IMG/VR virus record: IMGVR_UViG_3300038301_000548
Span: 126,699 to 190,698 of that record
Strand: one strand, 5' to 3'
Source: a virus
DNA length: 64,000 nucleotides
Part shown: positions 3,001-54,227 of the stretch, piece after piece
Position numbering within the stretch: position 1 is the stretch's first letter
Layout: every line of letters begins with the position of its first letter
Translations under genes and position numbers: made by a program
The notes under the pieces: model-generated
What the model was told of the DNA's origin: nothing
Seen by the model: the letters and a program-made list of their open reading frames with translations, nothing else
The model's database searches: none

Positions 3001-6000
3001 TGAACGCTGGGATCTTTAGACACTTTAAGAAATCACATAAGAGAGCCCCGGGAGATACTCTGTCAATAAATTCTGAAAAGACCTTTGGGACAGTACATGC
3101 ATTACCGAGCATTTTTAAATGCTCGTCTTGACCAAAGACGCTATCTAAATTTGTAAAATCTTTTGATGTGGTTCTTTCATCATACCACTCTTTGAAAGGC
3201 GCCTTGATGTTTTGATCGGTCCAAATCTGCAAGGCGTCATATGTCTTTGCGATTCCATCAAGACCTGGAGTGTACCTCTTTAAATATGCTAGGCCCTTCT
3301 TTCCCAAGTCGAGGTCACTGCAAAGCTCAGAGTTTGAAAGATCGAAGAAATTTAACCATGAGCCCATGGCCAAGCCACCTGACATACGATACAGTTGAGA
3401 GAGATAGATTGACGTCATAGGCCTTGTTAGTGCAGGCGCCTGAGCTTTAAGGTCACTATACTTTCCTTTGATGCCGCGGCCCTTTCGACTTTCAAAAATT
3501 ATATTTTTGCCGGCTTGGATCGATTCAATCTGGCCAGTATTCGCTGAAAATATAATTTTAATGTTGTTGGGGTATTTCCATCTCCAGTTTGATGCTGCGC
3601 CGTCAGCGTCGGCGCCGCCCTGAATTGCATCAAAACCACTAAGCTCCTGCGCATATGGAATCTCGGACACCAGGCCTGCTAGTGTGTCATCACCAAACTC
3701 AAAATCTGAACTTTGAGGCAGTTTTTTCTTGATATAATTTTTTAACTGCAGCAGACCATCTTCTAACTTTGTCGCCTCTAAGTTGCCATCGTAATTGCTG
3801 GAAAATCTTATTTTGTCTTCTTTGCACGAAGCGAAAGCTTCTCTTATATCTTTGGCCGAGATATCGACGCGATCTTTTATCTCGCGATAAGTCATATAAA
3901 TTTCAACGTAACGTCGATTGCCAAATTTCTTGTTATATGCCCATTCACTAAACGCGTCTAATGGCGTCTTAAGTAGACTGGTTCCTACTTTTAACACACT
4001 ATTGCTAAACTCGTCTTGTGAGCCAGAAAAGTCTCCTAGGTTTATTGGGCCCAGGTTTACATTTGCGTTACCAAAAACGCCCAGATCAACGCTGGTATTT
4101 GCAGTTTCAGCACGGTTTTGGAGTTCGGCAGCTGCAGTCTGTGACTCTCTTAAAGCCCGGGCAATTTCCCTTCTTCTTTTAGCGGCTAAAGCCCTGTATT
4201 CTTCATACCTCCTCTCTTGCTGGTCTTCTGTAAGAGGTGCATCGTTGCATGAGTCAGTTGGATTAGATGGCTCTTGTATTACCGGTGCTAAGGCACCTTG
4301 GCTATTTTGGCTTTCCGAAATTCTTAATTGGCTTTCTAGGATTCCATTATCTTCTGTGATCTGTGCCAGCTTCGCTCTATTTATAAGGAATTTAGCCCTA
4401 TATTTGTCGCCTGGGCGGAGGGACGGAAACCTAAATTCTACAAACTTTATTAATGGCTCTGCTGTGTTTATACTCAGCATGAGGCCTCGGGAGTCGGGAT
4501 CAGCGCTTTCGTATACTTCTATGTCAGTATAAGGTTGTATAGACTGGATTGTCTGCACGAGGTCTTCACTTAAATCTTGATATCCCGGAGACTCAAACTG
4601 CTCTAAAAAATTGTCTAGAAAAACATCAGGGGCTAGGAGCCATTCTCCGGATGATACATTCAGCTTTGGGAATATCTGTGATATTCTTTCTTTTGCGGGG
4701 GATCCCGTAGGGCTATTGAGCCGGCTGGCTCCGTCTTGGCCTTGGATGGTATCATATTCACTCCCCACAACGGTGAATGCGTCTTGGAAAGATGCTGATT
4801 TTGGATCTAATTTAAATAATATTGGTTTGTTTAGATGAACAAGAAGACTATATAAAGCTTTCTGCTCCAACTCTCTTATCGCTTGTTGGTACTCTACTTT
4901 CTCATCCAGAGTAGCTGTTGGTGCTGGTCTGAATGGAGGCAAATTGCTTAAAGTAAAATCAGTCTTATAGAAGTACCCCATAACGGTGTTACTAATAACA
5001 AATGGGTCTGGGTCTGTTAAGGGGTCTGGTTCACCAATTCGAGATACCGCATCTGCATAATCGCCTGAGGACATAGTTGAAACGCTTTCTGATTTTGGAA
5101 AATTATTTGAGACCTCTAGGAAAGCAGAATACAAAACACTCTTCCTACTCCTCTCTATAAGTTCATACCTTAAAGCAGCGAAATGCCTGTGGGCCAAGTC
5201 CCTGTATTGATCGTTGATATTATTACCGTCTAGACCCAGATCGACCGGCTGCAGAGGGTTTAATACACTTAAAGATTCACTTGGGCGAGCGGTGGCGTTA
5301 TATTTCTCTAGCGAGGCTATGAAATTCGAACCATCAGGGCCGAGATAATCTTTAAAGCCGGCGGGGCCGGCGCCCTGATCATATGAATAATTTGGGTGGT
5401 TTGGTATGCCTGCGAGGCCTTGCTTATTGTTAATTCCTTGCGACGTTGCTAGATCTTGAGAAAGGGTGCCCTCTACCAAAGACTGGTGCAAAGTGCGAGG
5501 AATAATATCGTGAGCAAGAGTTTCGTTTTGGAAAACATTCGGGTCATGGTAGTATGTTGTCGCTCCGACTCTTGTTCTTGGGCGCCAGCCATGGAGCACT
5601 GCTAAGGTGGCCTCACCCAGAGTACCAAACTCAGATTGGAAAAAAGTGTCTATAGCCTCAAGTTGATCTTGCGCTAATTGTAGTATTTGGCTCTCAGCTC
5701 TTCTTTCCCGCTCATCGTCAGTTAGGTAACCGTCGTCTTCGACGTCTTTGTTGGAGCTGAAAACTTTGTTATAAACTTTTGAAGGTATTCCATATTTTGA
5801 AAATAAGTAGCTTAGTATGTAAAATTGGTTATCTAATTGGAATTTTGTAAGGTAGGCTTCCATTGTGGAATCAAATGTTGCCGCCTCTCTCAATGAGACT
5901 TCCTTCCCAGTCATACAGTCCAGCCAATGATTCTTGTTGTCGAACACATCGGGATTCGCTTCTTCGGGAGCAAGAAGCTCTACAGATCCGAGCGCTTTAC

Positions 6001-6162: not shown

Positions 6163-7638
6163 TTAATTAACCGTATTATTGCGGCTATTGATGTACTTTG
6201 GGCCGCCGGGATCTAAATACTTCGTAGCATACAGACCTTTGTTTAGATCATTCATAAATAGTCCTAACCTAGTATTAATCAATAAGTCTAAAGTTGTTAA
6301 TATACCTTGTAGTGTTGCTTCGATACTCGGAGGAGTCGGCAGCAGTTCTGGCAATATATGGTAGTGGTTTGCTAAAATCTGATTAAAGTTCATTTGACTT
6401 GCGGCAAACGCATCAACGATGCCGCCTAATTTACTTATCAAGTCCACCATCTTTGTCAACCCCTCAACTAGATTATCCCCTAATACTAGTGGCTGTTGTG
6501 GTAATCTTTTTCCCGATTTATCACTACCATTCTCAGATATCAGGTGGATGCCGTTATTTTGTGTTATCCTATTGCCTTGCGAGTTAAACTTCTCATGGCG
6601 GCCGCCGGTAATGATCTTTATATCTTGTCGCGAATGGAGTCTAAGTTTATCCGCTTTCAACATTATCCCAGAACAAGGGTAAAGCTTTGTCTTCTTTTCC
6701 TGTTGTTGAGTGGCTGCATCAGGTGACTTAATGTTAAAATTATAATCTAAAGTTGTCATCTGTCCCATGTATATGCGAGCAGCGTCCATGCAGATTCCTG
6801 GGTGGTAGCCGCCTTTAAGTTGAACATTCTTAATCTCTGGTGTATTATGAGTGTTGAACATTGGGCCTGCGTTGATTGACCCTGAGTGCGAATCTTTATT
6901 AATTGGAAATGGGGCCATTCTCCCTACAACCAAATCTAAACAGCCTGCTCCCATATGATCTGAATATCTAGATTCTATATTTCGCTTGTTTGAATTTACC
7001 GAATATGAAAAGCCTGGATCATTTGTTCTTTCTCTTCCGAAGAAAATAGATGCGTTGTTATTAGTAGCTGACTTATTTAGTGTCTTTGCTGTCAGCACTA
7101 TTTCTCCAGGCCTCAATATGTGGCCGGGTAATGGTTCTTCTAGAGTGCGGCCGCTTTTGCCATCATTGCCGCCAGGAAAATCTATATGGTTCCTTGGTAG
7201 GCCCTTGATCATCGATCTTTTTGGAGGATCAGACTGTGCAGATGCGGGGGTCCCTAGCGACATACTTTTAGGTTCCGGGTCGTCGGTATCGGCGGCGGAT
7301 GACTTAATTGGGTCTGGTATCAGACTATCCAGCTTGTTGGATTTCGTTGCCGATTCTACTGACAGGGTCTGGGGATCTGCTTCTTCAAGTACTCCTCGCA
7401 ATAGCCTCTGGCTCACATCAAACTTATGCTCAAACTGAGAATATTTTCCATAGACAGTGCTTGTAAAACGCTCCATAGCAGAACTATATGCTGCGCTTTC
7501 GGTATTACCAGATGCTTCGACAGATGTTGACTCATTATCAATTTCTACCGAAATTCTCACCTTATGTTTGCCGGTCTGTTTGTCGTACATTCGAGAGAAT
7601 CTAGGAGCCTTTGTGATCGTTAGGCCGTTATACTTCAT
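6163..7638 (-). CDS. Putative baseplate hub/spike (gp5-like) protein
   Basis: 491 aa. The C-terminal part (IFFGRER..DAARIYMGQMT..IMLKADKLRLHSRQDIKIITGG) resembles beta-rich baseplate hub/spike proteins of large myoviruses; judged from memory and gene context. Confidence 0.45.
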   Translation of the reverse strand: MKYNGLTITKAPRFSRMYDKQTGKHKVRISVEIDNESTSVEASGNTESAAYSSAMERFTSTVYGKYSQFEHKFDVSQRLLRGVLEEADPQTLSVESATKSNKLDSLIPDPIKSSAADTDDPEPKSMSLGTPASAQSDPPKRSMIKGLPRNHIDFPGGNDGKSGRTLEEPLPGHILRPGEIVLTAKTLNKSATNNNASIFFGRERTNDPGFSYSVNSNKRNIESRYSDHMGAGCLDLVVGRMAPFPINKDSHSGSINAGPMFNTHNTPEIKNVQLKGGYHPGICMDAARIYMGQMTTLDYNFNIKSPDAATQQQEKKTKLYPCSGIMLKADKLRLHSRQDIKIITGGRHEKFNSQGNRITQNNGIHLISENGSDKSGKRLPQQPLVLGDNLVEGLTKMVDLISKLGGIVDAFAASQMNFNQILANHYHILPELLPTPPSIEATLQGILTTLDLLINTRLGLFMNDLNKGLYATKYLDPGGPKYINSRNNTVN

Positions 7639-7646
7639 TATAATCC

Positions 7647-8153
7647 TTATTTAATAATCCCATGAGAATAGTCGTACTCTCGGTCGAACTCAATCCGGAC
7701 GGTAGTTAGCTTTCCTGGTTTTGTGCCGTCAATTTTTCTCTTGTAACCTTTTGGAAACCTAGAGATTCTTTTCAGAGTCATAGCTATATCACTTTTTTGA
7801 TTACCTTTTTTCTCACCGGGGGTATTGAGGAGATCTATGCCGGTCCGCGTGGGTTGGGGTAGTGGGGCACAAATCTCCTCGACGTAAACGATTACTTCAA
7901 AGATAGTTGTGTTGGGATCCATATCATTACCCTCGGTTACTGCCTCAATAAAGTCCTGGTCAAAGCGTTTTTGAAAGTCTTTAAATTTAATCTCTGTTGT
8001 ATATAATGCGAAACCCGTAAACGTCATTGTTTCATTAGCTCTACTGGCTTCTTGGATTTTGTTAAATACCATAGCGTCCAGGTTTTCTTTCTTGGTTGCA
8101 GGAGTCCCAGTGGTCGCCTTTGGTGCAGCCTTTTGTTTCGCGGTACCGCCCAT
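7647..8153 (-). CDS. Hypothetical protein (structural module)
   Basis: 168-aa ORF tightly packed between neighbours; its start abuts the upstream stop. Confidence 0.6.
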   Translation of the reverse strand: MGGTAKQKAAPKATTGTPATKKENLDAMVFNKIQEASRANETMTFTGFALYTTEIKFKDFQKRFDQDFIEAVTEGNDMDPNTTIFEVIVYVEEICAPLPQPTRTGIDLLNTPGEKKGNQKSDIAMTLKRISRFPKGYKRKIDGTKPGKLTTVRIEFDREYDYSHGIIK

Positions 8154-26713: not shown

Positions 26714-27355
26714 TTAGATAAGCTCATCTACCAATCCGTATTCTAAGCACTTTTCGGCTTCCCACCAAATATCGTGTTTTAATAGATTATCCATCTCTCT
26801 CTTTGGTATCTTGGTATGTTCCCTGTAGATATCTTTTATTTTCTTCATTAGCATTTCTGAGTTTTTCATGTCATCTTGCATTTCTTGGAACTTACCCCAC
26901 ATGAGACCTGAAAGTTGGTGAACCAACATGCATGCATTCTTATGCATAAAGCGGCGTTCTCCCACACAAGACATTAAAGTTGCTGCGGAGGCTGCGCAGC
27001 CATCAATTACTGTGTGTACTGGAACTTTAGAGTTCTTTATATAATCTACTGCTGATAAGCCTGCAAAGACCGAACCGCCGTAACTGTTTATGTGAAGTTT
27101 GATTGGGGGCGGTGCGTACTCAAGCGGCCCTGTCTTAGACAGCATTGAAATATTCATATTAAAAATGCCTTTATTAAGCTTTAATATCTTAGGTCGCGTT
27201 ACACCGGAATAAAAGTAAATCCTATTATGACTAAAATCTACAATGTTGTGATCTTCTGACGCGTGGCCTTTGCTTTCAGACGCATAGTCATGAGGCGTCA
27301 TACCATCCTCTTCTTCTGGACCCTCTGTTGTGGATCCCCAAAAATAATCTCTCAA
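26714..27355 (-). CDS. clpP: Clp protease proteolytic subunit-like
   Basis: LHINSYGGSVFAG, GCAASAATL (catalytic S), LVHQ (H), DIWWEAEKCLEYGLVD. Confidence 0.88.
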   Translation of the reverse strand: MRDYFWGSTTEGPEEEDGMTPHDYASESKGHASEDHNIVDFSHNRIYFYSGVTRPKILKLNKGIFNMNISMLSKTGPLEYAPPPIKLHINSYGGSVFAGLSAVDYIKNSKVPVHTVIDGCAASAATLMSCVGERRFMHKNACMLVHQLSGLMWGKFQEMQDDMKNSEMLMKKIKDIYREHTKIPKREMDNLLKHDIWWEAEKCLEYGLVDELI

Positions 27356-27929: not shown

Positions 27930-27947
27930 AATTTTTTATTAAGTTAG

Positions 27948-28021
27948 TGGGCCTCCGCGGACTTGAACCGCGAACCTGCCGGTTATGAGCCGGATGCTCT
28001 GACCAATTGAGCTAGAGGCCC
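27948..28021 (-). tRNA. ileX: tRNA with CAU anticodon, most likely tRNA-Ile2 (lysidine type); CCA not encoded
   Basis: GGGCCTCTAGCTCAATTGGTCAGAGCATCCGGCTCATAACCGGCAGGTTCGCGGTTCAAGTCCGCGGAGGCCCA folds as a cloverleaf with loop CTCATAA. It has the C4-G69 and C5-G68 pairs reported as TilS determinants in E. coli, and lies next to tilS. Confidence 0.9.
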
Positions 28022-28040
28022 CCACATGAACAATATACAC

Positions 28041-28646
28041 CTATTTAACATAAAGTTCAAGCAGTTTTTTTCGAATAGTTTTGCGAATTCCTGGATTTAC
28101 TTTCAAAACGGCTGGTATGACGTTATGACGTATGTGATTTCTCATATGATTTGTGTGCTGGTTTGAAGGATCTTCAGTCCACGGAATGCTATGGTTCTCT
28201 GCGTATGATAGTATTGATTTTTTATCTGTCAAAAGAAAGGGCCTATATATATTTGGATCTCTTTTGTACGGAATAACTTTTCCATTTCCATGGAAACTAG
28301 ACATAAGCCAAGTCTCTACACAGTCATCGAGGTGATGACAAGTAATAATAAAGTTACTGCGAAGCCTGTTGAAAAAAGCATATCTTTCATCCCTCCAGAA
28401 TTCCTCAAGTGATCTTTTGCCTTTAAACCCCTTGATCTTACCAATAACTAGGTTTAAACTATGCTGAAATGCATAATTTTCTACAAAAGAAAGCGCTTCT
28501 TTTGAGTGAATGGTGTCGTGATCAAAATAAGCTAAGCTAACGTCTCTCTTGCCATGTGTAAGGAAATGAGAAACAACCATTGAATCGATTCCGCCGGAGC
28601 ATGCAATTGTTACCTTGTGTGGTATTTTTCCAATTATTCTTAACAT
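28041..28646 (-). CDS. tilS: tRNA(Ile)-lysidine synthetase, minimal N-terminal-domain form
   Basis: IACSGGIDSMV (PP-loop), WRDERYAFF, TCHHLDDCVETWL, IYRPFL, EDPSN..RNHIRHNVIP. Confidence 0.92.
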   Translation of the reverse strand: MLRIIGKIPHKVTIACSGGIDSMVVSHFLTHGKRDVSLAYFDHDTIHSKEALSFVENYAFQHSLNLVIGKIKGFKGKRSLEEFWRDERYAFFNRLRSNFIITCHHLDDCVETWLMSSFHGNGKVIPYKRDPNIYRPFLLTDKKSILSYAENHSIPWTEDPSNQHTNHMRNHIRHNVIPAVLKVNPGIRKTIRKKLLELYVK

Positions 28647-31690: not shown

Positions 31691-32719
31691 TCAAATACCA
31701 GCCCAGCTTTTGAATCTTGATAACATATTTGAATATATCGAACCCTCTTCTTTGTCCGGTTTACAACCTTTCGGATATAGGGGTTGACCATTTATCTTTT
31801 GAGCGCATGGAAGTTGGGCCCTTGCGTAAGCCATTAGTGCTGATTTCCACATTGACAACCCTCTAACTAACTCATCCTTATTTTCAATCTTTTTATGAAG
31901 AGCTGCGACGGAGTCAGAGTCTCCTTCTGATTCTGCTTTTTTTGTTTCTTCATAATAATCCTCTATGGAGAATTCTGATGTCTTCTTTATGTTTTCTATA
32001 TTCTTGTTTACCACATCCTCAAATGTTAAATTAAACCTCTTCGCCTCTTCGTAGTATCCTCGAGCGTGGGCTTCGACTTCATGAGAACTCATATAATAGC
32101 TCAAATCTTTCCCGAGTTCAACTGTTTTCGAGCTGGCGGTGACAGCCTGGCGCGCATGAGTTAATTCATGAGCTAATGCTTCTGTAATTTTGATTCGGAT
32201 GTTCTCTAGTTGTTTGCGGAAAAGAGCTACAGTACTTACTTCTAACTCATTGATTATAATTTTTATATTTAATTCTGTCCTTTCTAATGAATATTCAGAA
32301 TTTGCATCAACAAATATTTGATCTTTTGAGCCAAAACTGCCGGCGACCACAAAAGGTCGCGAATCATGTTCGCTGCTTCTTAAAATTACCCTTAAATTAA
32401 AGACCTCTATTGGGGATATTCCAACTTTTCTGTTGGAGCGTCGCTGGCGCCCTCGATAATCAGAAGATGAACCTGAGTACTCGTCAGGCAGGCCATCCTG
32501 AAAACCGTCTGCATAAGGGTCTTTTCCAAGTTTCCAACTCCAATTGTTATACTGGATATTAAAGGCTTCCCTTAGTGTGTCTTCTGGGTTTGAGTTCTTT
32601 GTTTTGTGGGTCAAAAGAGTCATGATAGCTCGCGACCATGTGGTGACTAGGCTTCGGACCTGGGTCTCGGTTATAATTTGCTCTTCAAACCCTTTCCAAT
32701 TTTCCATTATAAGTTTCAT
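31691..32719 (-). CDS. Cassette gene: HExxH zincin-like protein with MKLIMENW leader
   Basis: ALAHELTHARQ..YYMSSHEVEAHARG; N-terminus MKLIMENWKGFEEQIITE. Confidence 0.7.
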   Translation of the reverse strand: MKLIMENWKGFEEQIITETQVRSLVTTWSRAIMTLLTHKTKNSNPEDTLREAFNIQYNNWSWKLGKDPYADGFQDGLPDEYSGSSSDYRGRQRRSNRKVGISPIEVFNLRVILRSSEHDSRPFVVAGSFGSKDQIFVDANSEYSLERTELNIKIIINELEVSTVALFRKQLENIRIKITEALAHELTHARQAVTASSKTVELGKDLSYYMSSHEVEAHARGYYEEAKRFNLTFEDVVNKNIENIKKTSEFSIEDYYEETKKAESEGDSDSVAALHKKIENKDELVRGLSMWKSALMAYARAQLPCAQKINGQPLYPKGCKPDKEEGSIYSNMLSRFKSWAGI

Positions 32720-32750
32720 AATATTAAATAGTTTCCAATATAAGAAAAGT

Positions 32751-32770
32751 TGGTGGAGGTGGCGGGAGTT
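32751..32770 (-). repeat. tmRNA 3'-end-like repeat, copy 1
   Basis: Minus strand TAACTCCCGCCACCTCCACCA then ACTTTTCTTAT; the TAA is the stop of ORF 32769..33086. Confidence 0.85.
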
Positions 32771-33086
32771 ATGCTAAATTTCTGTCTCCAAGATTGCCCT
32801 TTAGGCGCTGCAGCATTATATTAACAATCAGGAATTTTTCTAACTCTGGATTTCCGGAGGAATATTTTTTTGCTAATTCTTCTGGTGGGGTGGCGGAGGC
32901 TATTTCTCCAGATTTCTGCATGGCGACCGTCACTTCGTATGCATCATCTAACCAATCAGGCGCGATGTCATGTTGGTCTTCCATCTCCTGCTGTGACCAA
33001 CGGCGCCCAAGGTCGTATTTCTGCTGATCTGAATGCTCCTCTGTTACGAACTTTCTCCAGTTTTCCATTATAAGTTTATGTTTCAT
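32769..33086 (-). CDS. Cassette gene, hypothetical, MKHKLIMENW leader
   Basis: ACTACTTA motif 5 nt upstream; stop fused to repeat copy 1. Confidence 0.75.
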   Translation of the reverse strand: MKHKLIMENWRKFVTEEHSDQQKYDLGRRWSQQEMEDQHDIAPDWLDDAYEVTVAMQKSGEIASATPPEELAKKYSSGNPELEKFLIVNIMLQRLKGNLGDRNLA

Positions 33087-33106
33087 AATAATAAGTAGTC
33101 CCCAAA

Positions 33107-33193
33107 ATAAGAAAAGTTGGTGGACAAAAGGTATACAGCTAGAGCCAGGTGTATACCTTTTGTTACGGTGTGGATTTGGAGGTGGCGGGAGTT
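33107..33193 (-). repeat. tmRNA 3'-end-like repeat, copy 2, split by a 52-nt hairpin-bearing insert
   Basis: Core TAACTCCCGCCACCTCCA at 33177-33193; tail TCCACCAACTTTTCTTAT at 33107-33124; a 14-bp inverted repeat at 33124-33137 / 33150-33163 lies between them. Confidence 0.8.
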
Positions 33194-33854
33194 AGTTGGC
33201 ACTTGTAATGCGGGGGTCGCTATATGTGTCTTTTATCTCATCTTCGGCCTTTTCAGCTGCATAATCTTTGCCTGATTTATCTGTTCCGGATGTTGAAATA
33301 ATTTTTGTTATTGCCTCTATCTTGTTTAGCCAACTAATATTTATTTTCTTTCCCTGGGTAATTAATCTCTTTTGCAATTTTGCCGCGCGTGGATTTATTT
33401 TGGGATCCCCCCCAGCATAACGAATAGACATTATAACTGCTTGGTGAAGATCTTGAAACGCGCTTCGATTGTGTTTTCCCAATGTGGCTCTCATACTGTC
33501 AAGAAGAACGCGATGGCTGCAGAATTCTTCCTGGCCGGGTGAAGTGGAACACTCACTATTGCGCGCAGAGGTAAGATCTGATAATGTTGTATAGTAGGCA
33601 TTATCTCCTTTGTATAAAGCACTAAAATCAGATTCTTGTTTTGTTTTGATTTTGCCCGTGCGCGTTTCCTCTTCCATCTGATATATTCTAACAGTGGCTG
33701 GGTTGAATTTTTTCCCTTTTACAAAATTCTCGTACCATACTGCAATTAATATATACTTTTCATTTTCAGACATCGCTCTTGCATAAGATGAGTGCTTCGC
33801 CTCTTCCTCTGCTAGGAACTTCTTCCAGTTTTCCATTATAAGTTTATGTTTCAT
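33192..33854 (-). CDS. Cassette gene, hypothetical, MKHKLIMENW leader
   Basis: Its 5' region (about 33825-33894) is nearly identical to that of ORF 32769..33086 (about 33057-33124). Confidence 0.75.
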   Translation of the reverse strand: MKHKLIMENWKKFLAEEEAKHSSYARAMSENEKYILIAVWYENFVKGKKFNPATVRIYQMEEETRTGKIKTKQESDFSALYKGDNAYYTTLSDLTSARNSECSTSPGQEEFCSHRVLLDSMRATLGKHNRSAFQDLHQAVIMSIRYAGGDPKINPRAAKLQKRLITQGKKINISWLNKIEAITKIISTSGTDKSGKDYAAEKAEDEIKDTYSDPRITSAN

Positions 33855-33886
33855 AATAATAAGTAGTCTCCAAAAATAATAAAAGT

Positions 33887-33906
33887 TGGTGGAGGTGGCG
33901 GGAGTT
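33887..33906 (-). repeat. tmRNA 3'-end-like repeat, copy 3
   Basis: TAAACTCCCGCCACCTCCACCAACTTTT; the TAA is the stop of ORF 33906..34199. Confidence 0.85.
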
Positions 33907-34199
33907 TATGTTTTAGAACTTGATGTAGTGTCTGTTACGTGTGGTTGTTTTTCGTGCTTTCTTACAAGGCGCTCAAGATACTTTATTCTTTTTTGTAATT
34001 TTAAAATCTTATCTTGTGTGGCATCACGGCCAGTGTTTGGGTCTCCAAGCTCTTGCCACAAGGCGGACAAATACTGTTGGTGATGCAATGTAAACGGGAT
34101 TGTTTTGTTGGTGCTTGTGCCTTCACTCCACTCTTCTTTAAGTATCTGTCTTGTCTCTTGTTCTATCATTTCTATCAACAATTTCTTTGTGATTTTCAT
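33906..34199 (-). CDS. Cassette gene, hypothetical, MKITKKLLIEMIEQE leader
   Basis: ACTAATTA motif upstream at 34218-34225. Confidence 0.7.
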   Translation of the reverse strand: MKITKKLLIEMIEQETRQILKEEWSEGTSTNKTIPFTLHHQQYLSALWQELGDPNTGRDATQDKILKLQKRIKYLERLVRKHEKQPHVTDTTSSSKT

Positions 34200-34244
34200 T
34201 ATAAAATCTCCTTACAGTAATTAGTGCTGAATATAAGAAAAAGT

Positions 34245-34265
34245 TGGTGGAGGTGGCGGAAGTCG
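34245..34265 (-). repeat. tmRNA 3'-end-like repeat, copy 4
   Basis: CGACTTCCGCCACCTCCACCAACTTTTTCTTAT. Confidence 0.8.
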
Positions 34266-34271
34266 TTTATT

Positions 34272-34820
34272 TTACCAGTTTACGCCGGTAGTGATAGCTG
34301 TAGCCCAATAGTTGTTGACGTCGGGCACAAAACTCAAGTGAACCGGTACACTAAACACGCCGGCGTCCATTGTGTAGCCGATGGCTGCTGTCAGGTGAAC
34401 ATATTTGTCTTCTCCTGAAGGATCGTGGAATGACAACTGAGGGCCGACTGCTAATTGAATTGATTTGTCGATCTCAAACCCAACTAAAACCCGAGCTGAT
34501 GGTGATACTACGCTTTGATCTAATCCTGTGATACTCACATTTTGAATAAACAGGACATCCAACCAATCTCCCCCTGGCATACATTGCTGCAGTTCGAATC
34601 CCATTGTGAACATGTGTGGACTGTTAAGCTTCGATTCTGTGCCATCTGCATCAGGTGCGTCAGCCTTGTTGGCATAAACATAACCTAACCTGAGTCCTGA
34701 GCGCTTTGTCCATTTTTTGACACCCTCTTTATCTGTTGGGTGGGCCTTTGCTTGTGGGCACCCAATGAGTGCCAAAGTTGCGAACATTACTGTTGCTACT
34801 AAAATTATTTTCTTTAACAT
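34272..34820 (-). CDS. Cassette gene: exported, probable outer-membrane beta-barrel protein
   Basis: Signal peptide with a possible lipobox (LALIGC); alternating beta-strand pattern; C-terminal aromatic residue (AITTGVNW); own sigma70-like promoter. Confidence 0.55.
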   Translation of the reverse strand: MLKKIILVATVMFATLALIGCPQAKAHPTDKEGVKKWTKRSGLRLGYVYANKADAPDADGTESKLNSPHMFTMGFELQQCMPGGDWLDVLFIQNVSITGLDQSVVSPSARVLVGFEIDKSIQLAVGPQLSFHDPSGEDKYVHLTAAIGYTMDAGVFSVPVHLSFVPDVNNYWATAITTGVNW

Positions 34821-34853
34821 TTATATACTCCTATCTTTTTTAATGCTAGGGGT

Positions 34854-34882
34854 AGTATACAATATTTCCATCTATATGTTAA
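34854..34882 (-). promoter_or_regulatory. Sigma70-like promoter for ORF 34272..34820
   Basis: TTAACA (34882-34877), 17-nt spacer, TATACT (34859-34854); GGAG Shine-Dalgarno before the ATG. Confidence 0.55.
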
Positions 34883-34890
34883 ATAAAAGT

Positions 34891-34911
34891 TGGTGGGGGT
34901 GGCGGGAGTCA
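34891..34911 (-). repeat. tmRNA 3'-end-like repeat, copy 5
   Basis: TGACTCCCGCCACCCCCACCAACTTTT (one T>C change). Confidence 0.8.
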
Positions 34912-34997
34912 TTTTCTTTATCCTTGGACAAAACTTACCCCCCCTAGCACCAATGGTATACACCTTTTGTTTCCCACTTTGCGGGAACATAAAAATA

Positions 34998-35048
34998 TTA
35001 TTGACTAACATAAGCATAACCATCTTGACGCTCAATGTGAATAGTCAT
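34998..35048 (-). CDS. Putative 16-aa mini-ORF MTIHIERQDGYAYVSQ
   Basis: AAGGAG Shine-Dalgarno 7 nt upstream; sigma70-like promoter TCGACA-N17-TATAAT at 35118-35090; hairpin TTCCCGC-AAA-GTGGGAA downstream. Confidence 0.4.
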   Translation of the reverse strand: MTIHIERQDGYAYVSQ

Positions 35049-35194
35049 TTTCTTCTCCTTCTTTGTTTGGCGAGGATTCAAATGAGACAATTATACTCCA
35101 TTTAGAAGTAAATGTCGACCTTTTGTCTCGGATAAAACTTACTCCACTTGGCTCCAAGTGTTGACCTTTAAGGTGGAAACGCCCAAAGTTTTGG

Positions 35195-35218
35195 GTGGAT
35201 TTGGAGGTGGCGGGAGTT
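35195..35218 (-). repeat. tmRNA 3'-end-like repeat, copy 6 (variant tail AATCCAC shared with copy 2)
   Basis: AACTCCCGCCACCTCCAAATCCAC is identical to 33170-33193. Confidence 0.8.
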
Positions 35219-35242
35219 TAATCGCCATGGATCCAGAACTTT

Positions 35243-36649
35243 TTACTTGTCGATATTTTTCGTTGGGCGAACGATTATGTTTGGTCTGTTTCTTGTCGAC
35301 AGCCGCGGCAGAAGGTGTACATGAGTAGTCCGAGCATCCAAGACCGCGACGACGCCTACATCGGGAGTCGGGTGAAATGGTACCGAGCTAACATATTCTA
35401 CAGCGTGGCTTTTAACACCACGGGCGTGGGATCTTGATGGGACATTCATTCGAACGGGGGTGACCAGATTTTTTGCAAAAGCTTCTGGCCGCTTGCCGCG
35501 TGGGGTTCTATAAACATTAGTTATATGGCTTACCATATTATCTGGGCCCCCGCCAGTGGCTCCTTTGGGACCCGGATTGGTGAATATCCGGCTTGAAAAG
35601 ATCCTTCTTGCTATCTCTAGAGAAGTGAGTCCTTCTTCCGCAGATGAAATCTTTCCAAAAGTAGGTCTCGCGGGATTCAAAAGGAACCCTTTTTCTCTAA
35701 TTGCGTAATTAACATCTAACATTGTTTGGCCTTTCGATGCGTATCGCACTTTGTGAATATAATAATCGTATGAAGGATCTAAAACTTCGGAGAGATTATC
35801 CATAAGAACGATGTCCTCTTGAGCAATATCTAGCCGGTCTTTTCTCTGTGGGCGGCCACCGGCGCGTGGACCGTATCTGGGCGTTGGCGCCATGGGTGGC
35901 GCGCCGGAGAAAAAAGCGCCACCGGGTTGAATACCATCTGCCCTGTACATTCCATAATTTTCGCGAGGGACTTTTTTTGACATCTTAATTTCGCGGTTTG
36001 CGGCGTCCACTTTCGGCCGGCCGGGTTCACGGCCCCATGAATGCCTCATCGATTTCGCCAACTTTGTTTTAGAAAAAACCTTGCTAACTAATCCCAGGAT
36101 CCTGCTGATACTTACAGAAAGGGCGCCGATTCCGGCACTGATGGCGATTTGTTCGACAAGTGCTTGAGTGGCTTCCTCGATTTTTTCAAACGGAGTTAGA
36201 TAAGTTTCGCCCTGATAACTTTGGTTTTTAGTTTTAGTGGAATCTCCAAAAGCCATCCCGTCAAAGCGTCGCGGCGTAGATAAAGTGGACCCACGCTGGA
36301 CGTCACGCGTAAAATGGAAGTCTAACCAACCCGGGTTTTCGTCTTCAATAGCTTTTATTTGAGGTACCTCCTTAAAAAATTTTATTGTTTCCGATTGGGC
36401 GCGCCAAGTATCCATATCAGTAGCCAGTAACTTATCATAATAAATTTTAATCTTTCTGATAAGGCTGTTATACCACTTTTGATACTCCAAGGTTTTTTTT
36501 TCTTTTTTTTCTTTTTCTTTTTTTTCTTCTTCTTCTTCTTCTCTCTCACTTTTTTGCTTCTGTCGTTTGTGGTAAGCGCGGCGCGCCGGGTCTTCTTTAA
36601 GGATTTCAGATCCAACATAGGCGCGCCAAATTTCCATTATAAGTTTCAT
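35243..36649 (-). CDS. Cassette gene, 468 aa, MKLIMEIW leader, with a low-complexity E/K tract and a hydrophobic segment
   Basis: ORF track; ACTACTTA motif at 36670-36677; GAGGAG Shine-Dalgarno. Confidence 0.7.
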   Translation of the reverse strand: MKLIMEIWRAYVGSEILKEDPARRAYHKRQKQKSEREEEEEEKKEKEKKEKKTLEYQKWYNSLIRKIKIYYDKLLATDMDTWRAQSETIKFFKEVPQIKAIEDENPGWLDFHFTRDVQRGSTLSTPRRFDGMAFGDSTKTKNQSYQGETYLTPFEKIEEATQALVEQIAISAGIGALSVSISRILGLVSKVFSKTKLAKSMRHSWGREPGRPKVDAANREIKMSKKVPRENYGMYRADGIQPGGAFFSGAPPMAPTPRYGPRAGGRPQRKDRLDIAQEDIVLMDNLSEVLDPSYDYYIHKVRYASKGQTMLDVNYAIREKGFLLNPARPTFGKISSAEEGLTSLEIARRIFSSRIFTNPGPKGATGGGPDNMVSHITNVYRTPRGKRPEAFAKNLVTPVRMNVPSRSHARGVKSHAVEYVSSVPFHPTPDVGVVAVLDARTTHVHLLPRLSTRNRPNIIVRPTKNIDK

Positions 36650-36711
36650 ATATAAGACTCTCCTCTTTATAAGTAGTTTATATTAAGGTATTAAAGAACA
36701 AGAAAAAACTT

Positions 36712-36730
36712 GTGGAGGTGGCGGGAGTCA
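36712..36730 (-). repeat. tmRNA 3'-end-like repeat, copy 7
   Basis: TGACTCCCGCCACCTCCAC; the TGA is the stop of ORF 36728..37168. Confidence 0.8.
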
Positions 36731-37168
36731 TTCTATGTTGTCTAAGTCAATAAGCCAAACCTCTACAGGGTAGTTAACATCTCTACAATGTTGCATCCCC
36801 ATCATGGTCAACCTAGTGTTACCAGCAATAAGAGTATATTCCCCATTAACTTTTTTAACTATTGGCAACTCTATTTCTCCAGAATCAAACATTTTGCCTA
36901 CGCGTTCCTGTCTATCTGATGTGAGATTTTGATACTCTTCTTCCATTTCTTTGCAGATATCCGAAAACTGTGTGTTCTTAATTTGGCCTGCTATTGGTAG
37001 GGCATCTATTACTTTCCCCTTTGAGGATATTTCTATCCAAGATTCTTTTGTTGGAAAATCTTCACTATGATGAACTCTTGCTTCATCCCACTCAAAATTA
37101 AAGTTTGGGTCTCGAAAACTTATAGATTCGTTTAAATATCTTCTCCAGCTTTCCATTATAAGTTTCAT
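36728..37168 (-). CDS. ParB/Srx-like domain protein with MKLIMESW leader
   Basis: IELPIVKKVNGEYTLIAGNTRL resembles the ParB-like PI.V......Y.li.G.hR motif. Confidence 0.55.
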   Translation of the reverse strand: MKLIMESWRRYLNESISFRDPNFNFEWDEARVHHSEDFPTKESWIEISSKGKVIDALPIAGQIKNTQFSDICKEMEEEYQNLTSDRQERVGKMFDSGEIELPIVKKVNGEYTLIAGNTRLTMMGMQHCRDVNYPVEVWLIDLDNIE

Positions 37169-42019: not shown

Positions 42020-43027
42020 CTAAATGTATTCTTTATCTCCGGAAAAGAATATTTCTATGTCTTCATTAACTAACATATGTAGTTTTGTAGTTAGCCAGAA
42101 TTCTATATCGTCGCGGGAATCAAATTCTAAGATATGTGGACCATCATAAACACACCATTTTCCAACCTCGTCTAAAATATCCATTTTATTGAATACTATG
42201 TTATTAGTACCGTTCATTCTTGTGGCCATCTTTAGTAGATCAAAGTCTAGCCAGTTTATTTGGCGCGCACGACCGGTTGTCGCTCCATATTCTTCCCCTA
42301 AATTCCTAATTTGTTCGAATTCGTCATAAGGGCCTTCAAAGTCCTTAGCTCCTACATAGGTCTCATAAATCTTAGCAACGCCCCAAATATCCCTAATGGC
42401 TTTTGGAGGAACACCGTTCAAAAGTGCAGATCCCACTGTGCAATGAGAAGAGGTAACATAAGGGTAGTCACCCCAGTCAATATCCAGCCCAAAACCTTGG
42501 GCGCCCTCAAATAGAATCTCTATATTTTCAAATTCTTCATTTTCATACAATTCTAAATATAAATTAATCAGATAATTGCTTAGTCGTGGGTCTTCGAGGG
42601 CCCGTATTCCTTTTCTGGCATACTTATCCCTATAGGCCGGACCATTTCCTCTCCTAGTCGTGCCTATTTCTGTATCTTTTGAGTCTTGAATCCGATGAAA
42701 ATCAGTAATTAAGTGAGCATTGGTAGAGACTTTTACCAACTCTTTTGCTGGTATACCAGCTTCTTCAAGTTGTTCAATCTCTTCTAAAAATGTCTCGACA
42801 TGGACAACACAACCTGGTCCAATGATCGATTTTATGCCAAAGAAAACACCACAAGGTATATGATGTGTGACAAATTTAACACCTTCATGATATATTGTAT
42901 GACCAGCGTTACAGCCGCCGTTATATCTTATCACGTGAGTATAATCTTTGTCTTTACACAGGGCGTGCGCAATTTTACCTTTTCCACAATCTCCATACTG
43001 AAGATCTACAACTATGTCCGCTATCAT
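42020..43027 (-). CDS. purA: Adenylosuccinate synthetase, short (335 aa) type
   Basis: QYGDCGKGK, RYNGGCNAGHTI, GTTRRGNGPAY, FEGAQG..LDIDWGDYPYVTSS, GATTGRAR, NKMD. Confidence 0.9.
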   Translation of the reverse strand: MIADIVVDLQYGDCGKGKIAHALCKDKDYTHVIRYNGGCNAGHTIYHEGVKFVTHHIPCGVFFGIKSIIGPGCVVHVETFLEEIEQLEEAGIPAKELVKVSTNAHLITDFHRIQDSKDTEIGTTRRGNGPAYRDKYARKGIRALEDPRLSNYLINLYLELYENEEFENIEILFEGAQGFGLDIDWGDYPYVTSSHCTVGSALLNGVPPKAIRDIWGVAKIYETYVGAKDFEGPYDEFEQIRNLGEEYGATTGRARQINWLDFDLLKMATRMNGTNNIVFNKMDILDEVGKWCVYDGPHILEFDSRDDIEFWLTTKLHMLVNEDIEIFFSGDKEYI

Positions 43028-50456: not shown

Positions 50457-53400
50457 TTAAAGGTCATCCTCCACTTCTCGCGAAAGTCTAGAGATGGTCT
50501 CCCCTGGTCGCATTATTGCCAAGAGGGTCTCGTTACTAGGGTTGCTTTGAAAACCGCGGATTGCCTGGCTTAATAGTCGGCATGCCAATATAAAATTATT
50601 GCATAGCTTCAAAACTTCTTGGAGAAGCTTTGGGTCTTTATTAAATACATACCTTTCTTTTTTCCTTTGTTCCATTACCATAAACCCTCTAAAGGCAACA
50701 GCCCTCCTATGATAATCTTTAAGAGTATTAAGAATTCGTTTAAATTCAAGTTTCTCCGGAGAGATTATATCAAGATCAGCAACACTCTTGCCGCCTTTCA
50801 TAGCCCAGAGAAAGGCATCAGCGCGGCTCCATGTTTCTATTCCAGACTCGAAGCAGAATGCCCTCTTTTCTCTCTTTGAAACATGAAGAAAGCCAATATT
50901 ATAAACACCTGGACTCTTCCTATCAGGGTCGCCCCTATCAAGGTCAAACGCACCAAAGTTTAGACCATATATATCACTAAATGAGTTGTCTAGATTCCAT
51001 TTAAACTTCTTTACTTCCCCTGGGGCCCCACCAGCCAAGTGATCTTCCATATTCCTCCAAAAAATGTTCTTAATGTTATTGGATATCCTTATCTGATCTC
51101 TGATTGCTTGCTCAGACGCCTTCCCAATATATTGAGCATTACTCAAGTAACTATAGGCCGTCGAGAATGTCTTTCTACCTGCGCGGTCGTCTTCACCTAG
51201 GCCGTATTTACAATACTCCCCGCCTTTCAGGATAAGTGCAAGGGTATTTCTCAAATCATAGCCATTCTTGATGTTTTTTGCGCCATGGCATGCTGTTTTG
51301 GATGTCGCGCCTCTTTGAGGTGGCGCGCTGCCGGTTGGAGTTTGCGTATTTGAACCCAGACTCCAACTCTTTATGATTTTTGCAGTATCGCTTTCGTCTC
51401 CTTCAGTATTGGCGCCACTGGTGACCTTGGCCTCCGCGCCGAGCGCCGTGGCAATCTTGCCTTTATCGCCCCATGCAACTCTTGATCCTCTTATATCATA
51501 ATGGACCCATCCATCGTAATAGCCTAGGCCACCCGCGGTGATTTCTCCCGAAGCCATCATATCATTGACGATTTTATAAATCTGAGGGATCGTCTTGGTA
51601 TTACCCTTTGCTGGCTTGATATCCGCAGCTCTACCCAGCATATGTTGTGATGTTGTAGCGCCATTGATGGAGGTATTATAATCTGGAGTTCTATATCCTG
51701 AACTTATTCCTAAGGCCCCTGTCTTATTACGAATCTTTTCTAGTTCAATGGCCAAGGCTCTAACATTTTTCTTATATTTCTCAGGGACAGGGGTATTATT
51801 TTTATCTTTACACTTAAATTCTTCATACGAAAAGTGTGGCGCACCGGGGATTTTTGTTGTTGTTTTCTTCTTCTGCTCTTCGAGTTGATTCATCATCATA
51901 GCCTTTGGTGATGGCGCATTAGTCCTCAGTACTTCTCCTGTCTTTGTACTCTTTATCTGTGTTGACCCATCCTGGCCATAGGTAGTGGTTGTTGTTGGGT
52001 TCCTCTTTTGTCGTTGTCGAATATTTAAATTATTTTTATCTATTTTTATTTTTAAACCTTTTTTTATTTTCTTATTAAGATTCCTGTAGAACAACATTGT
52101 TGATTCGAGCTGCCGACACAATTTCTTATAAAATAGGGCCGGGCGCGCCGTTGAATCACTGCAGGCTTTATTGAACAAATCCCTCATATCTGCTTGAACC
52201 CGCTTCGTCTCCGGGGTAAGTTCAACTTTGAGATTCTTTCTATTGATTTCACCAGAGCCCTGTTGCGTATTTTTAGAATACACTGTCATGATCGCTGTTG
52301 CGGCCGCATCGATAACTTTAAAGCTATTTTCAACCCTTTTTTTAATTAGCGTCTCGTCTTCCTTCAGATCCTTTTTGAAATTTTTAAAGTTAATACTAGT
52401 TTTCTTTCCATCGGCTCTTAGAACTTTTAATATGTTCTGAAATTCACGATCCATTTCCTTCGCCTGGATCTCTGTCTCTGTCCAAAGATTATGCACCCAC
52501 ATCCCAATTAACAACGCTATCTCCATCGCCTCAATTTTCATCAAACCTTTTGCGATGAGTATTTGTGACGCTTTTGTCAGCCTAGCCCGGGTGGCCGCTG
52601 CGCGCGCAAGAGTGAGTCCTTTGCCCATCTGAAAGGGTAAGGCATACAGGAGTATGTCCCCTAGGATTTCTAGAGATTTCCTAAAGGTCGACTTGGCTTC
52701 TTCTTCGTCTTTCTCTATCCTTTGTCTGGCCCAATTTTGAAACTGCGTTGCTTTCGCGAGTTCTCTTACGGCTATCTTTTTCTGCTCCTCACTACCCTTG
52801 GATGCGGCAGCCAACGAAGCATTGATGTTTACAAGGAATTCACTACTATAATAATCAATCATCGTCATAAGGTTGGGAAATTTGCTTATATCACCACGAG
52901 AGACTCCTTCGTTAGAGAAAGGGATATCAAGTATACAGATCATTAAGTGCTTGATCAAGTCATCAGAAAATGTCGAATCAAGCTCTTTAGCACACCCGGC
53001 ATCAGTGCCAGGTTCCGGAGCCATTCCACCTAAGTTAGTCGATTGACCGACAGCTTTCATAAGGGTGTGCACACTTCCACCTCGGCCCCATATCTTGTCA
53101 GCTAGACTTCTAAATTTTGGATCCTTATCAACCCTCGTGTAATATTGGCGCCAATTTTTCCATTGCGGACTGTCTTTTGGTAGACACATCCCCACAACCA
53201 GACCCATTTCTTTTAAGTACCATTGCTTGGCTCTCAGACCTTCTTCCGTTTTATGCGCAACCTGGTAAGCCTCTATGGTTTTATAACCTTCGCCGCAGTT
53301 TCTGCCGTCCCTCGCGCGGAAGATTTTAAGCTCTCGATCAAAGACTTGAGAAATTTCTTTAGGAGGGTTCTGAGGGTCGTAACCCCCACCGGTCCAATCT

Positions 53401-54227
53401 TTGCCGGTTGTTGTGTCAGCCATGTCGATATCAGTGGAACTGCCTACCATTGTCGGATATTCTGTCAACAATGCGACACCCTCTTCTAGTCCATAACCCA
53501 CCGGTGCAGTTCTCAAGGTATTTATGGACCCATCCGAAGCATTTCCGGGGTTATAAGATTTGCTTGTTGCTTTTTTTACCTTTTGGGGCTCTATTTTATT
53601 TTCTGAAGGTTTCCACTTCTTAAAACCTTCCTTGTTTTTAAAAGTGCCCTTAACCCCGACTCTGATAATTTTCCAGACAATATCTAAAAATTCCGAGTTT
53701 GCTTTTCGAAAATACTCATCTTTTAGGTCCGGAAACTCTTCTTGTAGATTTTCTTGTAGATTTTCTAATATTGAAGCTACTAACTTTTTATTTATTTCAA
53801 TAAAATTGTCTTTACAAAACTCGTCTTTTATAAATTTTCTAGTTTTTAATACTATTTTTCTTTCTTTTTGGTCAAATTCAGGATCTACAATTGGTCGTAA
53901 TGCAGCGCTCCCAGCTATTGGCGCGCCCACACTTGGTAATTTCATAAAAGCTGCCCAGACGATGCGCGCCCCGACGGTAGAATATTTTACGTCAGGCTCT
54001 ACGGTTTTCTCAAGCTGTTTCCATATCCAGTTGCCGGCAGGAGCCACTGTGGCATCCCAAGCCTCTCCTGGCGTTGGGTACATACCCATACTTTTCGAAT
54101 CTTGAGATGGATCGACCTCATTTAAGATTATTCTTTGAATTTCTGGGTCATCTTTAAAAGCTGTTTCTAGTTTCTGTTCTAGTTTTAGCTTTTTTAGCTC
54201 TTCTATTATAAATTTTTCTATATTCAT
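50457..54227 (-). CDS. Large virion protein with an internal peptidase M15A domain
   Basis: PHFSYEEFKCKD..LEKIRNKTG..ISSGYRTPDYN..GATTSQHMLGRAADI..GLGYYDGWVHYDIRG; ACTATTTA motif at 54233-54240. Confidence 0.75.
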   Translation of the reverse strand: MNIEKFIIEELKKLKLEQKLETAFKDDPEIQRIILNEVDPSQDSKSMGMYPTPGEAWDATVAPAGNWIWKQLEKTVEPDVKYSTVGARIVWAAFMKLPSVGAPIAGSAALRPIVDPEFDQKERKIVLKTRKFIKDEFCKDNFIEINKKLVASILENLQENLQEEFPDLKDEYFRKANSEFLDIVWKIIRVGVKGTFKNKEGFKKWKPSENKIEPQKVKKATSKSYNPGNASDGSINTLRTAPVGYGLEEGVALLTEYPTMVGSSTDIDMADTTTGKDWTGGGYDPQNPPKEISQVFDRELKIFRARDGRNCGEGYKTIEAYQVAHKTEEGLRAKQWYLKEMGLVVGMCLPKDSPQWKNWRQYYTRVDKDPKFRSLADKIWGRGGSVHTLMKAVGQSTNLGGMAPEPGTDAGCAKELDSTFSDDLIKHLMICILDIPFSNEGVSRGDISKFPNLMTMIDYYSSEFLVNINASLAAASKGSEEQKKIAVRELAKATQFQNWARQRIEKDEEEAKSTFRKSLEILGDILLYALPFQMGKGLTLARAAATRARLTKASQILIAKGLMKIEAMEIALLIGMWVHNLWTETEIQAKEMDREFQNILKVLRADGKKTSINFKNFKKDLKEDETLIKKRVENSFKVIDAAATAIMTVYSKNTQQGSGEINRKNLKVELTPETKRVQADMRDLFNKACSDSTARPALFYKKLCRQLESTMLFYRNLNKKIKKGLKIKIDKNNLNIRQRQKRNPTTTTTYGQDGSTQIKSTKTGEVLRTNAPSPKAMMMNQLEEQKKKTTTKIPGAPHFSYEEFKCKDKNNTPVPEKYKKNVRALAIELEKIRNKTGALGISSGYRTPDYNTSINGATTSQHMLGRAADIKPAKGNTKTIPQIYKIVNDMMASGEITAGGLGYYDGWVHYDIRGSRVAWGDKGKIATALGAEAKVTSGANTEGDESDTAKIIKSWSLGSNTQTPTGSAPPQRGATSKTACHGAKNIKNGYDLRNTLALILKGGEYCKYGLGEDDRAGRKTFSTAYSYLSNAQYIGKASEQAIRDQIRISNNIKNIFWRNMEDHLAGGAPGEVKKFKWNLDNSFSDIYGLNFGAFDLDRGDPDRKSPGVYNIGFLHVSKREKRAFCFESGIETWSRADAFLWAMKGGKSVADLDIISPEKLEFKRILNTLKDYHRRAVAFRGFMVMEQRKKERYVFNKDPKLLQEVLKLCNNFILACRLLSQAIRGFQSNPSNETLLAIMRPGETISRLSREVEDDL

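Follow-up and report, generated by a model that had tools for sequence, protein, structure and literature searches.

How do single genes come to stand in a row separated by the same short sequence, and how do they enter and leave such a row? The question is raised by a 64,000-nt window (positions 126,699 to 190,698) of the 190,698-bp virus record IMGVR_UViG_3300038301_000548 from IMG/VR, in which seven copies of a repeat punctuate a minus-strand array of genes at window positions 31691–37168. The repeat is the 3′ tail of a transfer-messenger RNA (tmRNA) gene; related phages carry the intact gene at the same locus, and close strains have exchanged single genes with breakpoints in short conserved blocks around the tail. 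We consider it the best reading, at a probability of about 0.6, that tail, promoter and protein leader form a junction resembling the promoter-early stem-loop (PeSL) modules of T4-type phages or the ip locus of T-even phages, shuffled by short-homology recombination. Coordinates refer to the window unless this genome (G000) or a related locus is named.

The repeat is the tail of a tmRNA gene

A search with the 16-mer ACTCCCGCCACCTCCA, permitting up to two mismatches and using 100 shuffles as the chance control, returned seven copies in the window, all on the minus strand and each with at most one mismatch. Five are exact (32754, 33177, 33890, 35202 and 36713) and two differ by one base (34248 and 34894). 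Shuffled sequences held 0.01 copies on average, none of the 100 reached seven, and no eighth copy exists anywhere in the complete record; an earlier note on this DNA, whose coordinates include the terminal CCA, had named the same seven sites and called them unique in the window. All genes of the array region lie on the minus strand, placing the repeat on the coding strand, and each copy sits at, or a few bases from, the stop codon of its gene. Directly 3′ of the repeat, CCAACTTTT is found in five of the seven copies; the copies at 35202 and 33177 run into AATCCAC and then a hairpin, and that at 36713 runs into CAAGTTTTTT.

The repeat corresponds to the last 19–21 nt of a one-piece tmRNA gene, from the middle of the T-loop to CCA: the last 3–4 T-loop bases, the 3′ strands of the T-stem and acceptor stem, the discriminator base and CCA. 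The repeat is nearly identical to the terminus of the RF00023 consensus in Rfam and equals that of the relatives' tmRNA, confirming the tmRNA origin that the earlier note had read from the letters. When a relative's tmRNA was compared with this genome by blastn, only positions 291, 292 or 293 to 308–311 aligned, seven times. ARAGORN found no tmRNA in this genome, and the best RF00023 match anywhere in it reached 5.9 bits, at one repeat, with neither a full tRNA-like domain nor a tag frame, in keeping with the claim that no intact tmRNA is present. Because only positions 291–311 are matched, ARAGORN reports nothing and RF00023 gives just 5.9 bits, the repeats are orphan tails of a phage tmRNA gene whose body was lost from this phage.

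Folding the seven repeats with their flanks gave no common hairpin (Z-scores −2.6 to +0.6), with structures differing by copy, and no attC-type imperfect palindrome or symmetry was found in the repeat. We rejected a terminator role on this folding result and on a terminator scan that found none at the repeats. Anti-Shine–Dalgarno pairing of the tail's CACCUCC with the downstream GGAG was likewise rejected for want of covariation, since the tail stays constant while the GGAG ahead of the promoter box varies (GGAA, GGGG, GAAG, GAGG, CAGG, AAAG and GCAG). Scanned against Rfam at E ≤ 10, the locus gave chance matches only, with no group I intron and no partial tmRNA, and none of 50,697 isolated phage records matched it in blastn. 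Other assemblies of the same genome are 100% identical or broken at the repeat and added no polymorphism. As a separate observation, the complement of CCACCAAC, present in all tail copies, reads GTTGGTGG; the Chi sequence of E. coli is GCTGGTGG, from which we take GTTGGTGG to be one base off.

Related phages carry the intact gene at the same locus

A scan of viral contigs with the 16-mer returned mostly ordinary tmRNA 3′ ends. A subset of large viral contigs (175–193 kb) carries a complete tmRNA that ends in the motif and is followed, as in the array, by CCAACTTTTC, then GGAGACTAYTTA, then an ATG. An intact tmRNA occupies the same locus in at least ten related T4-like phage loci; that of phage G001 scores 127.9 bits against RF00023 and encodes the tag peptide ANDDVENFEDFALAA. 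In G001, G005, L131 and L259 the intact gene, missing from this genome, is followed by tail fragments; G005 has five extra tail copies, G001 three, and other loci one or two. The relatives' tmRNA runs directly into the promoter of the next gene with no terminator between them. Among bacterial genomes, the repeat sequence occurs at 53 ordinary single ssrA ends spread over many phyla; there were no tail arrays, and similarity to any tmRNA was confined to the last ~40 nt.

Two relatives carry remodelled versions of the gene. In L249 (G002), at ~6965–7420, the tmRNA is split into a 5′ part with the tag frame (~6982–7073) and a 3′ part (7368–7420) by ~290 nt, in which a ~79-aa open reading frame (ORF) replaces the pseudoknot region; this copy has an odd T-loop, GCGGGAGTCGGAGCCCGC, is not called by ARAGORN, and is accompanied 1.2 kb upstream by a separate 36-nt copy of the tmRNA 5′ region (5715–5750). 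In L250 (G005), at 7531–8030, an intact tmRNA has a different, compensated T-arm (AGGAG/CTCCT) and is followed on its 3′ side by a 175-nt terminator-hairpin block and then a displaced copy of the usual tail, an arrangement that is a mosaic from exchange within CACCTCCA.

Single genes are exchanged between phages and strains

Across 18 related loci the order of the flanking genes is kept, while the genes between them are almost all different and many are singletons. The array is bordered on one side by a conserved ~1,100-aa gene with its ~126-aa neighbour, and on the other by a PP-loop ATPase followed by tRNA(CAU). This right border (27947–28646, minus strand; PF01171, directly upstream of the tRNA) is conserved in all relatives, and PF01171 fits TilS.

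Cassettes are far more alike between phages than the genomes that carry them. The backbones of this phage and G005 are 67–72% identical in nucleotides and 34–55% in protein, as against 87% and 96% for a cassette encoding a 182-aa barrel-like protein and 91% and 92% for one encoding a 105-aa protein, and the high-identity blocks start and stop in the tail and linker. In G005 the 105-aa gene directly follows the barrel-like gene; here two other cassettes lie between them. In each of three phages a different neighbour stands to the right of the barrel-like cassette, every join falling at the tail, and a further copy of its protein, 77% identical, lies elsewhere in L266 without the repeat.

Breakpoints are seen most sharply among three near-identical strains, G002, L129 and L134, whose flanks are 99.2–100% identical over 5.7–10.5 kb and which nevertheless have three different cassette contents (F numbers denote genes):

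G002: F43; promoter and 90-aa gene F44; tail; F31
L129: F43 with a different end; short tail; 96-aa leader gene F52; variant tail; F31
L134: F44; tail; 128-aa leader gene; F52; the same variant tail as in L129; F31

Identity between the strains restarts directly after the tail. In L134, the tail behind F44 is joined to the linker that in G002 follows the degenerate tmRNA, and divergence sets in again just past the leader codons; a third junction lies at the microhomology GGAG(G/C)CAAGTGGAG. Junctions in tail, leader codons and microhomology thus point to several short conserved blocks and not one fixed breakpoint. The variable locus with gain, loss and shuffling at the repeat that had been predicted from this one sequence is borne out by the 18 differing loci and by the breakpoints at the repeat in close strains.

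Layout of the array and its linkers

From its first leader-bearing gene onwards, the array comprises the following features, the repeats R1 to R7 being those returned by the repeat search:

36728–37168, minus strand: gene of 146 aa starting MKLIMESWRRYLNE, the first leader-bearing gene of the array
36713–36728, minus strand: R1, perfect 16-mer, then CAAGTTTTTT
36670–36677, minus strand: late-promoter-like box ACTACTTA after R1, then a ribosome-binding site
35243–36649, minus strand: cassette gene of 468 aa starting MKLIMEIWRAY, with a highly charged K/E stretch
35202–35217, minus strand: R2, perfect tail, then AATCCACCCAAAACTTTGGGCGTTT
34910–35201, minus strand: unit U2, with a terminator-like hairpin, sigma70-like promoter, ribosome-binding site and 16-codon ORF
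34891–34909, minus strand: R3, tail including CCA, variant CACCCCCA, then a sigma70-like TTAACA-N17-TATACT
34272–34820, minus strand: cassette gene of 182 aa, with signal peptide, lipobox LIGC and aromatic C-terminal residue
34245–34263, minus strand: R4, tail including CCA, variant ACTTCC, 8 nt past the stop codon
34218–34225, minus strand: box ACTAATTA after R4
33906–34199, minus strand: cassette gene of 97 aa starting MKITKKLLIEMIEQE, a second N-terminus type
33887–33905, minus strand: R5, perfect tail including CCA
33860–33867, minus strand: box ACTACTTA after R5
33192–33854, minus strand: cassette gene of 220 aa starting MKHKLIMENWKKFLAEE
33112–33192, minus strand: R6, tail split by an insert, 16-mer part at 33177–33192
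33092–33099, minus strand: box ACTACTTA after R6
32769–33086, minus strand: cassette gene of 105 aa starting MKHKLIMENWRKF
32751–32769, minus strand: R7, perfect tail including CCA
32725–32732, minus strand: box ACTATTTA after R7
31691–32719, minus strand: last cassette gene, 342 aa, starting MKLIMENWKGF, with a HELTH (HExxH-type) motif

The typical unit had been outlined accurately before: a T-rich stretch behind the repeat, a promoter, an ORF with the shared leader, and a stop at the next repeat. The start of the 146-aa gene overlaps the stop of an upstream 137-aa gene, and its own TGA stop is fused to R1. The sequence AATCCACCCAAAACTTTGGGCGTTT behind R2 is the terminator-like trailer found behind the intact tmRNA in G005 and L101. 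In U2, the sigma70-like promoter (35118–35090) agrees with the consensus at 11 of 12 positions, and a stretch of ~115 nt matches the promoter region of the 90-aa cassette of G002 at 97% identity, the ORF body being replaced. The insert in R6 (33124–33176) is 53 nt long with a perfect hairpin, after which the repeat resumes as CCACCAACTTTT (33112–33123). We considered the inserts behind R2 (292 nt) and R6 as introns and rejected this, alignment showing a terminator-like trailer, a promoter and a replaced ORF. At R3 (34891–34942, minus strand), an upstream GGGGGGG could pair with the variant tail CACCCCC in a mini acceptor-like helix; this site, the sole RF00023 contact in the genome, could be the remnant of an internally deleted tmRNA.

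Searches of Pfam and PHROGs assigned no family to any cassette protein. The 468-aa protein has no homolog among 17 related loci, and the 342-aa protein has one distant homolog only (38% identity) among 5.8 billion proteins. Two leads, offered as such, are a likeness of the 182-aa protein to outer-membrane beta-barrels and a protein-atlas connection of the 146-aa protein to ParB_N-like clusters.

The box behind most tails belongs to a motif, ACTA[CTA]TTA, with 39 copies on the genome's coding strand and 4 on the opposite strand; it lies upstream of many genes, including some behind terminator hairpins in the structural module. From this strand bias and placement we infer a promoter box of the phage's own, probably late. 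A sigma70-type promoter replaces the box behind R3, in U2 and in some relatives. Comparing all linkers of the form TTTT-N6-20-ACTAHTTA in the loci of this phage and its relatives, we counted 20 with a tail (11 perfect, 4 with one change, 5 degenerate or truncated) and ~64 of the same promoter type without any. The left edge of the tail falls at tmRNA position 286 in the variant tail, at 291–293 in most copies and at 296 or 299 in others. ACTTTT also stands ahead of ACTAYTTA boxes that have no tail, and may belong to the promoter rather than to the tail. The conserved block extends past CCA into phage-specific promoter sequence, which indicates that the units were made within this phage clade.

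Probable short-homology recombination and its alternatives

Searches for tyrosine recombinases (PF00589) and serine recombinases (PF00239) were negative for this genome and for five relatives (four of these 96–100% complete), in line with the earlier statement that the window lacks an integrase; in control genomes the same searches recovered PF00589 in 14 of 14 and PF00239 in 12 of 14. The process that we favour would need none. The composite linker consists of a tmRNA tail (~20 nt, from the middle of the T-loop to CCA), ACTTTT and a predicted promoter — either the phage box ACTAYTTA or a sigma70-type TTGACA-N17-TATAAT — continued in most units by the first ~14 codons of the leader (M)KLIMENW(R/K)x(F/Y)(L/V/I)xE. 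Such short conserved blocks would act as portable homology, by which the phage's own machinery, a RecA/UvsX homolog, could exchange, delete, duplicate and reorder single genes between co-infecting relatives, with crossovers in the tail copy, the leader or chance microhomologies. The variable region of the relatives begins at a phage-encoded one-piece tmRNA, of which this phage has lost the body and kept seven tails.

Several observations weigh against this reading. Units that have the tail alone in common offer only 20–26 nt of homology; at least 15 unrelated genes have their stop codon 0–3 nt from the left edge of a tail; the left edges cluster in the T-arm (positions 286–299 of the ~310-nt gene); and the left edge of the tail is also the edge of the attP identity blocks in temperate phages that integrate at ssrA. 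Simple homologous recombination does not account for the first gain of a tail by each gene. The stop–tail fusions could possibly come from trimming of spacers by deletion, or from breakage at the T-arm hairpin.

The alternative that survives best holds that the tail is kept as an RNA or transcription signal derived from tmRNA maturation, recombination being a by-product; the signal could be an endonuclease site at CCA/ACUUUU, or a C-rich Rho entry site separating the cassette transcripts. The relatives' tmRNA lacks a terminator before the next promoter, so its 3′ end must come from processing. Every tail is on the coding strand, shortly before a promoter, at the place that a terminator hairpin takes in other linkers of this genome, and the tail is an unusual C-rich stretch of 20 nt (13 C, 1 G) in a genome of 40% GC. 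Without the 5′ half of the tmRNA, however, the tail cannot form the tRNA-like fold, ~64 linkers with the same promoter do without it, and a quarter of the tails are degenerate. ACTTTT precedes tailless boxes too, perhaps as part of the promoter, and in orthologous cassettes the tail, with ~5% differences against 9–13% in coding sequence (small numbers), is not clearly better conserved. We regard this explanation as possible but doubtful; a signal role of the tail would be compatible with shuffling by short homology.

A site-specific process appears unlikely. Here the tails would be active attachment sites at which an ssrA-specific integrase, provided in trans by the host, a resident element or a satellite, inserts cassettes serially into the tmRNA T-loop and displaces 3′ fragments — or a structure-specific nuclease of such origin would read them — making the locus an integron-like platform on which a lytic phage stocks capsid-delivered effectors. 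The topology of tandem accretion, an intact tmRNA followed by cassettes and 3′ fragments, is indeed present in G001, G005 and L131. Most left edges lie in the T-loop, as in the identity blocks of ssrA-integrating phages, and resemble the partial tRNAs beside tycheposons (10.1101/2020.12.28.424599). Repeat variants move with the upstream gene, F52 keeping its own variant in two strains. Yet the recombinase searches of all six genomes were negative, and breakpoints between near-identical strains fall also in the leader and at microhomology. The left edges vary and copies decay, with no fixed crossover position; the repeat has neither symmetry nor a hairpin; bacterial genomes show single ssrA ends and no arrays; and the phage-specific block past CCA places the origin of the cassettes within the phage clade. 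The same lack of a recombinase gene in the genomes searched and of an attC-like hairpin, the breakpoints outside the repeat and the varying edges speak against the att-like, integron-like new system that the earlier note had proposed.

Tandem duplication of one unit, with gene bodies diverging beyond recognition and no exchange between phages, would account in one event for stops fused to the tail at the same position, and leader genes do evolve fast (five of eight have no homolog in the relatives), but it is highly improbable and contradicted as the sole explanation, given cargo from clearly unrelated families (here a barrel-like protein with a signal peptide, in relatives IscU and IscA), cassettes far more alike between phages than the backbone, near-identical strains that differ by whole cassettes, and tails with different left edges.

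A shared protein leader

Five of the eight array ORFs start with MK(HK)LIME(N/S/I)W, a leader found nowhere else in the genome. In viral contigs, at least 94 different sequence contexts precede its 21-nt core, and the tail is part of only 11 of them. A comparison of 106 distinct leader genes shows the consensus W-(R/K)-x-(F/Y)-(L/V/I)-x-E at positions that the search pattern left free; the Glu is present in 78, and conservation stops after it. The T4 prohead protease cuts after Glu in (L/I)-x-E motifs. By analogy, it is plausible that the leader is a capsid-targeting propeptide removed by a gp21-type protease, and likely that many, though not all, cargo genes encode head-packaged proteins. T4 internal proteins have in common just a short cleaved leader (PMC3012670, PMC12373910). 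A propeptide role cannot cover all of the cargo, given the 182-aa barrel-like protein with its signal peptide and IscU and IscA in relatives; the idea of head-packaged effectors, advanced for the whole array, thus holds for a part of it at most.

The gp21-like protease of this phage (G000:79974–80576, outside the window) itself starts with MKLIREYYQ, resembling the cassette leader, and the N-terminus of the capsid protein (G000 75127–77160, outside the window) contains ALLNKWE, weakly reminiscent of LIMENWR. Upstream of the tmRNA in L248, L249 and L250, several adjacent unrelated genes have a second N-terminus in common, MPKFYRQNKKRIDPRYFLNET, which may represent a second leader family ending in L-N-E; many of the intervening genes of the relatives carry one leader or the other. 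A literature search on the leader peptide returned nothing relevant.

Genomic setting

The phage is T4-like, encoding a gp23-type capsid protein, a gp21-type prohead protease (PF03420, 102.8 bits) and a RecA/UvsX-family recombinase. In this T4-like marine phage the locus forms a hyperplastic region of accessory genes that can be compared with the T-even ip hotspot; regions of this kind are known in T4-type phages (PMC2839356, PMC4122927). The cargo between the tails of relatives includes IscU and IscA.

Other features of the genome stand apart from the array. A 335-aa adenylosuccinate-synthetase homolog (42020–43027, minus strand; PF00709, 276 bits) has a PurZ-type family as its best PHROG, and the phage DNA may contain 2-aminoadenine. 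Over the whole genome GAGCTC is absent, with 24–31 sites expected, and CACGTG is depleted; the GC-rich palindromes GCCGGC (111 sites) and GGCGCC (113 sites) are in excess of the 16.5 that base composition predicts. The sequence GGCGCGCC occurs 15 times, four of them within the 468-aa cassette gene. Near the array lie a ClpP-family protease gene (26714–27355, minus strand; PF00574) and a gene whose 1,256-aa product contains an internal M15 peptidase domain (50457–54227, minus strand).

Significance and comparison with known systems

The near-identical strains reveal how marine T4-like phages swap single accessory genes, and the linker is a new type of portable junction, in which the tail of a structural RNA gene is fused to a promoter and a protein leader. 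The ~14-residue leader, present in about a hundred gene contexts of ocean viral contigs, is a candidate capsid-targeting signal and, if it acts as one, would offer a handle for finding injected anti-defence proteins of uncultured phages. Phage-borne tmRNA genes have been lost and remodelled more than once, and the locus keeps a record of this. Such genes are already known, as are hyperplastic regions, PeSLs and ip leaders; we found no account of a lytic phage in which multiplied tmRNA tails join the cassettes of an array, or of the widespread KLIMENW leader.

Integrons likewise have a one-directional array of single-gene cassettes with a short repeat at the cassette 3′ end, but this locus has no IntI, attI or attC-type imperfect palindrome, and each cassette has its own promoter. 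Tandem accretion at tRNA and tmRNA genes, as described for tycheposons and cis-mobilizable elements (10.1101/2020.12.28.424599; Williams 2002 as cited there), also flanks cargo with direct repeats of the 3′ part of the gene, mostly with T-loop edges, and builds a one-directional array beside an intact gene, as in the relatives here. It differs in that this lytic phage has single-gene units of 0.3–1.5 kb and no integrase, a repeat of 20 nt instead of ~40 nt, and breakpoints not confined to the repeat. A phage-encoded tmRNA is known from the T4-like marine phage Melnitz (PMC9004378), and the relatives here similarly carry a complete ssrA without an integrase; theirs is one-piece, that of Melnitz two-piece, and in this genome the gene is lost and its tail alone multiplied.

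The closest parallels are the two from which our preferred explanation, short-homology shuffling at a composite linker, is drawn. PeSL cassettes of hyperplastic regions in T4-type phages (Arbiol et al. 2010, PMC2839356; Comeau et al. 2014, PMC4122927) also occupy an ORFan-rich hyperplastic region of a T4-like phage, with a short composite intergenic module that spans the gap from one gene's stop codon, by way of a promoter, to the start of the next gene; this module is where insertions, deletions and replacements that distinguish close relatives have their breakpoints. The PeSL has a stem-loop terminator where this linker has a non-folding 20-nt copy of a tmRNA 3′ end, and a sigma70 early promoter where this one mostly has the phage-specific ACTAYTTA box; the module here often reaches into a conserved protein leader, and mini-circles, formed by recombination between modules, are known for PeSLs. 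The T-even ip hotspot (Repoila et al. 1994 as cited in PMC12373910; PMC3012670) differs in having no counterpart of the tmRNA-tail linker in T4 and a leader other than KLIMENW, for which packaging and cleavage are only predicted, and some cargo here and in relatives (the secreted barrel-like protein; IscU, IscA) is not of the ip kind. The analogy to it drawn at the outset is nonetheless apt in a T4-like phage with a gp21-type protease: both are polymorphic loci adjoining lysozyme and tRNA genes, where unrelated small genes have only an N-terminal leader in common, and in both that leader ends in hydrophobic-x-Glu.

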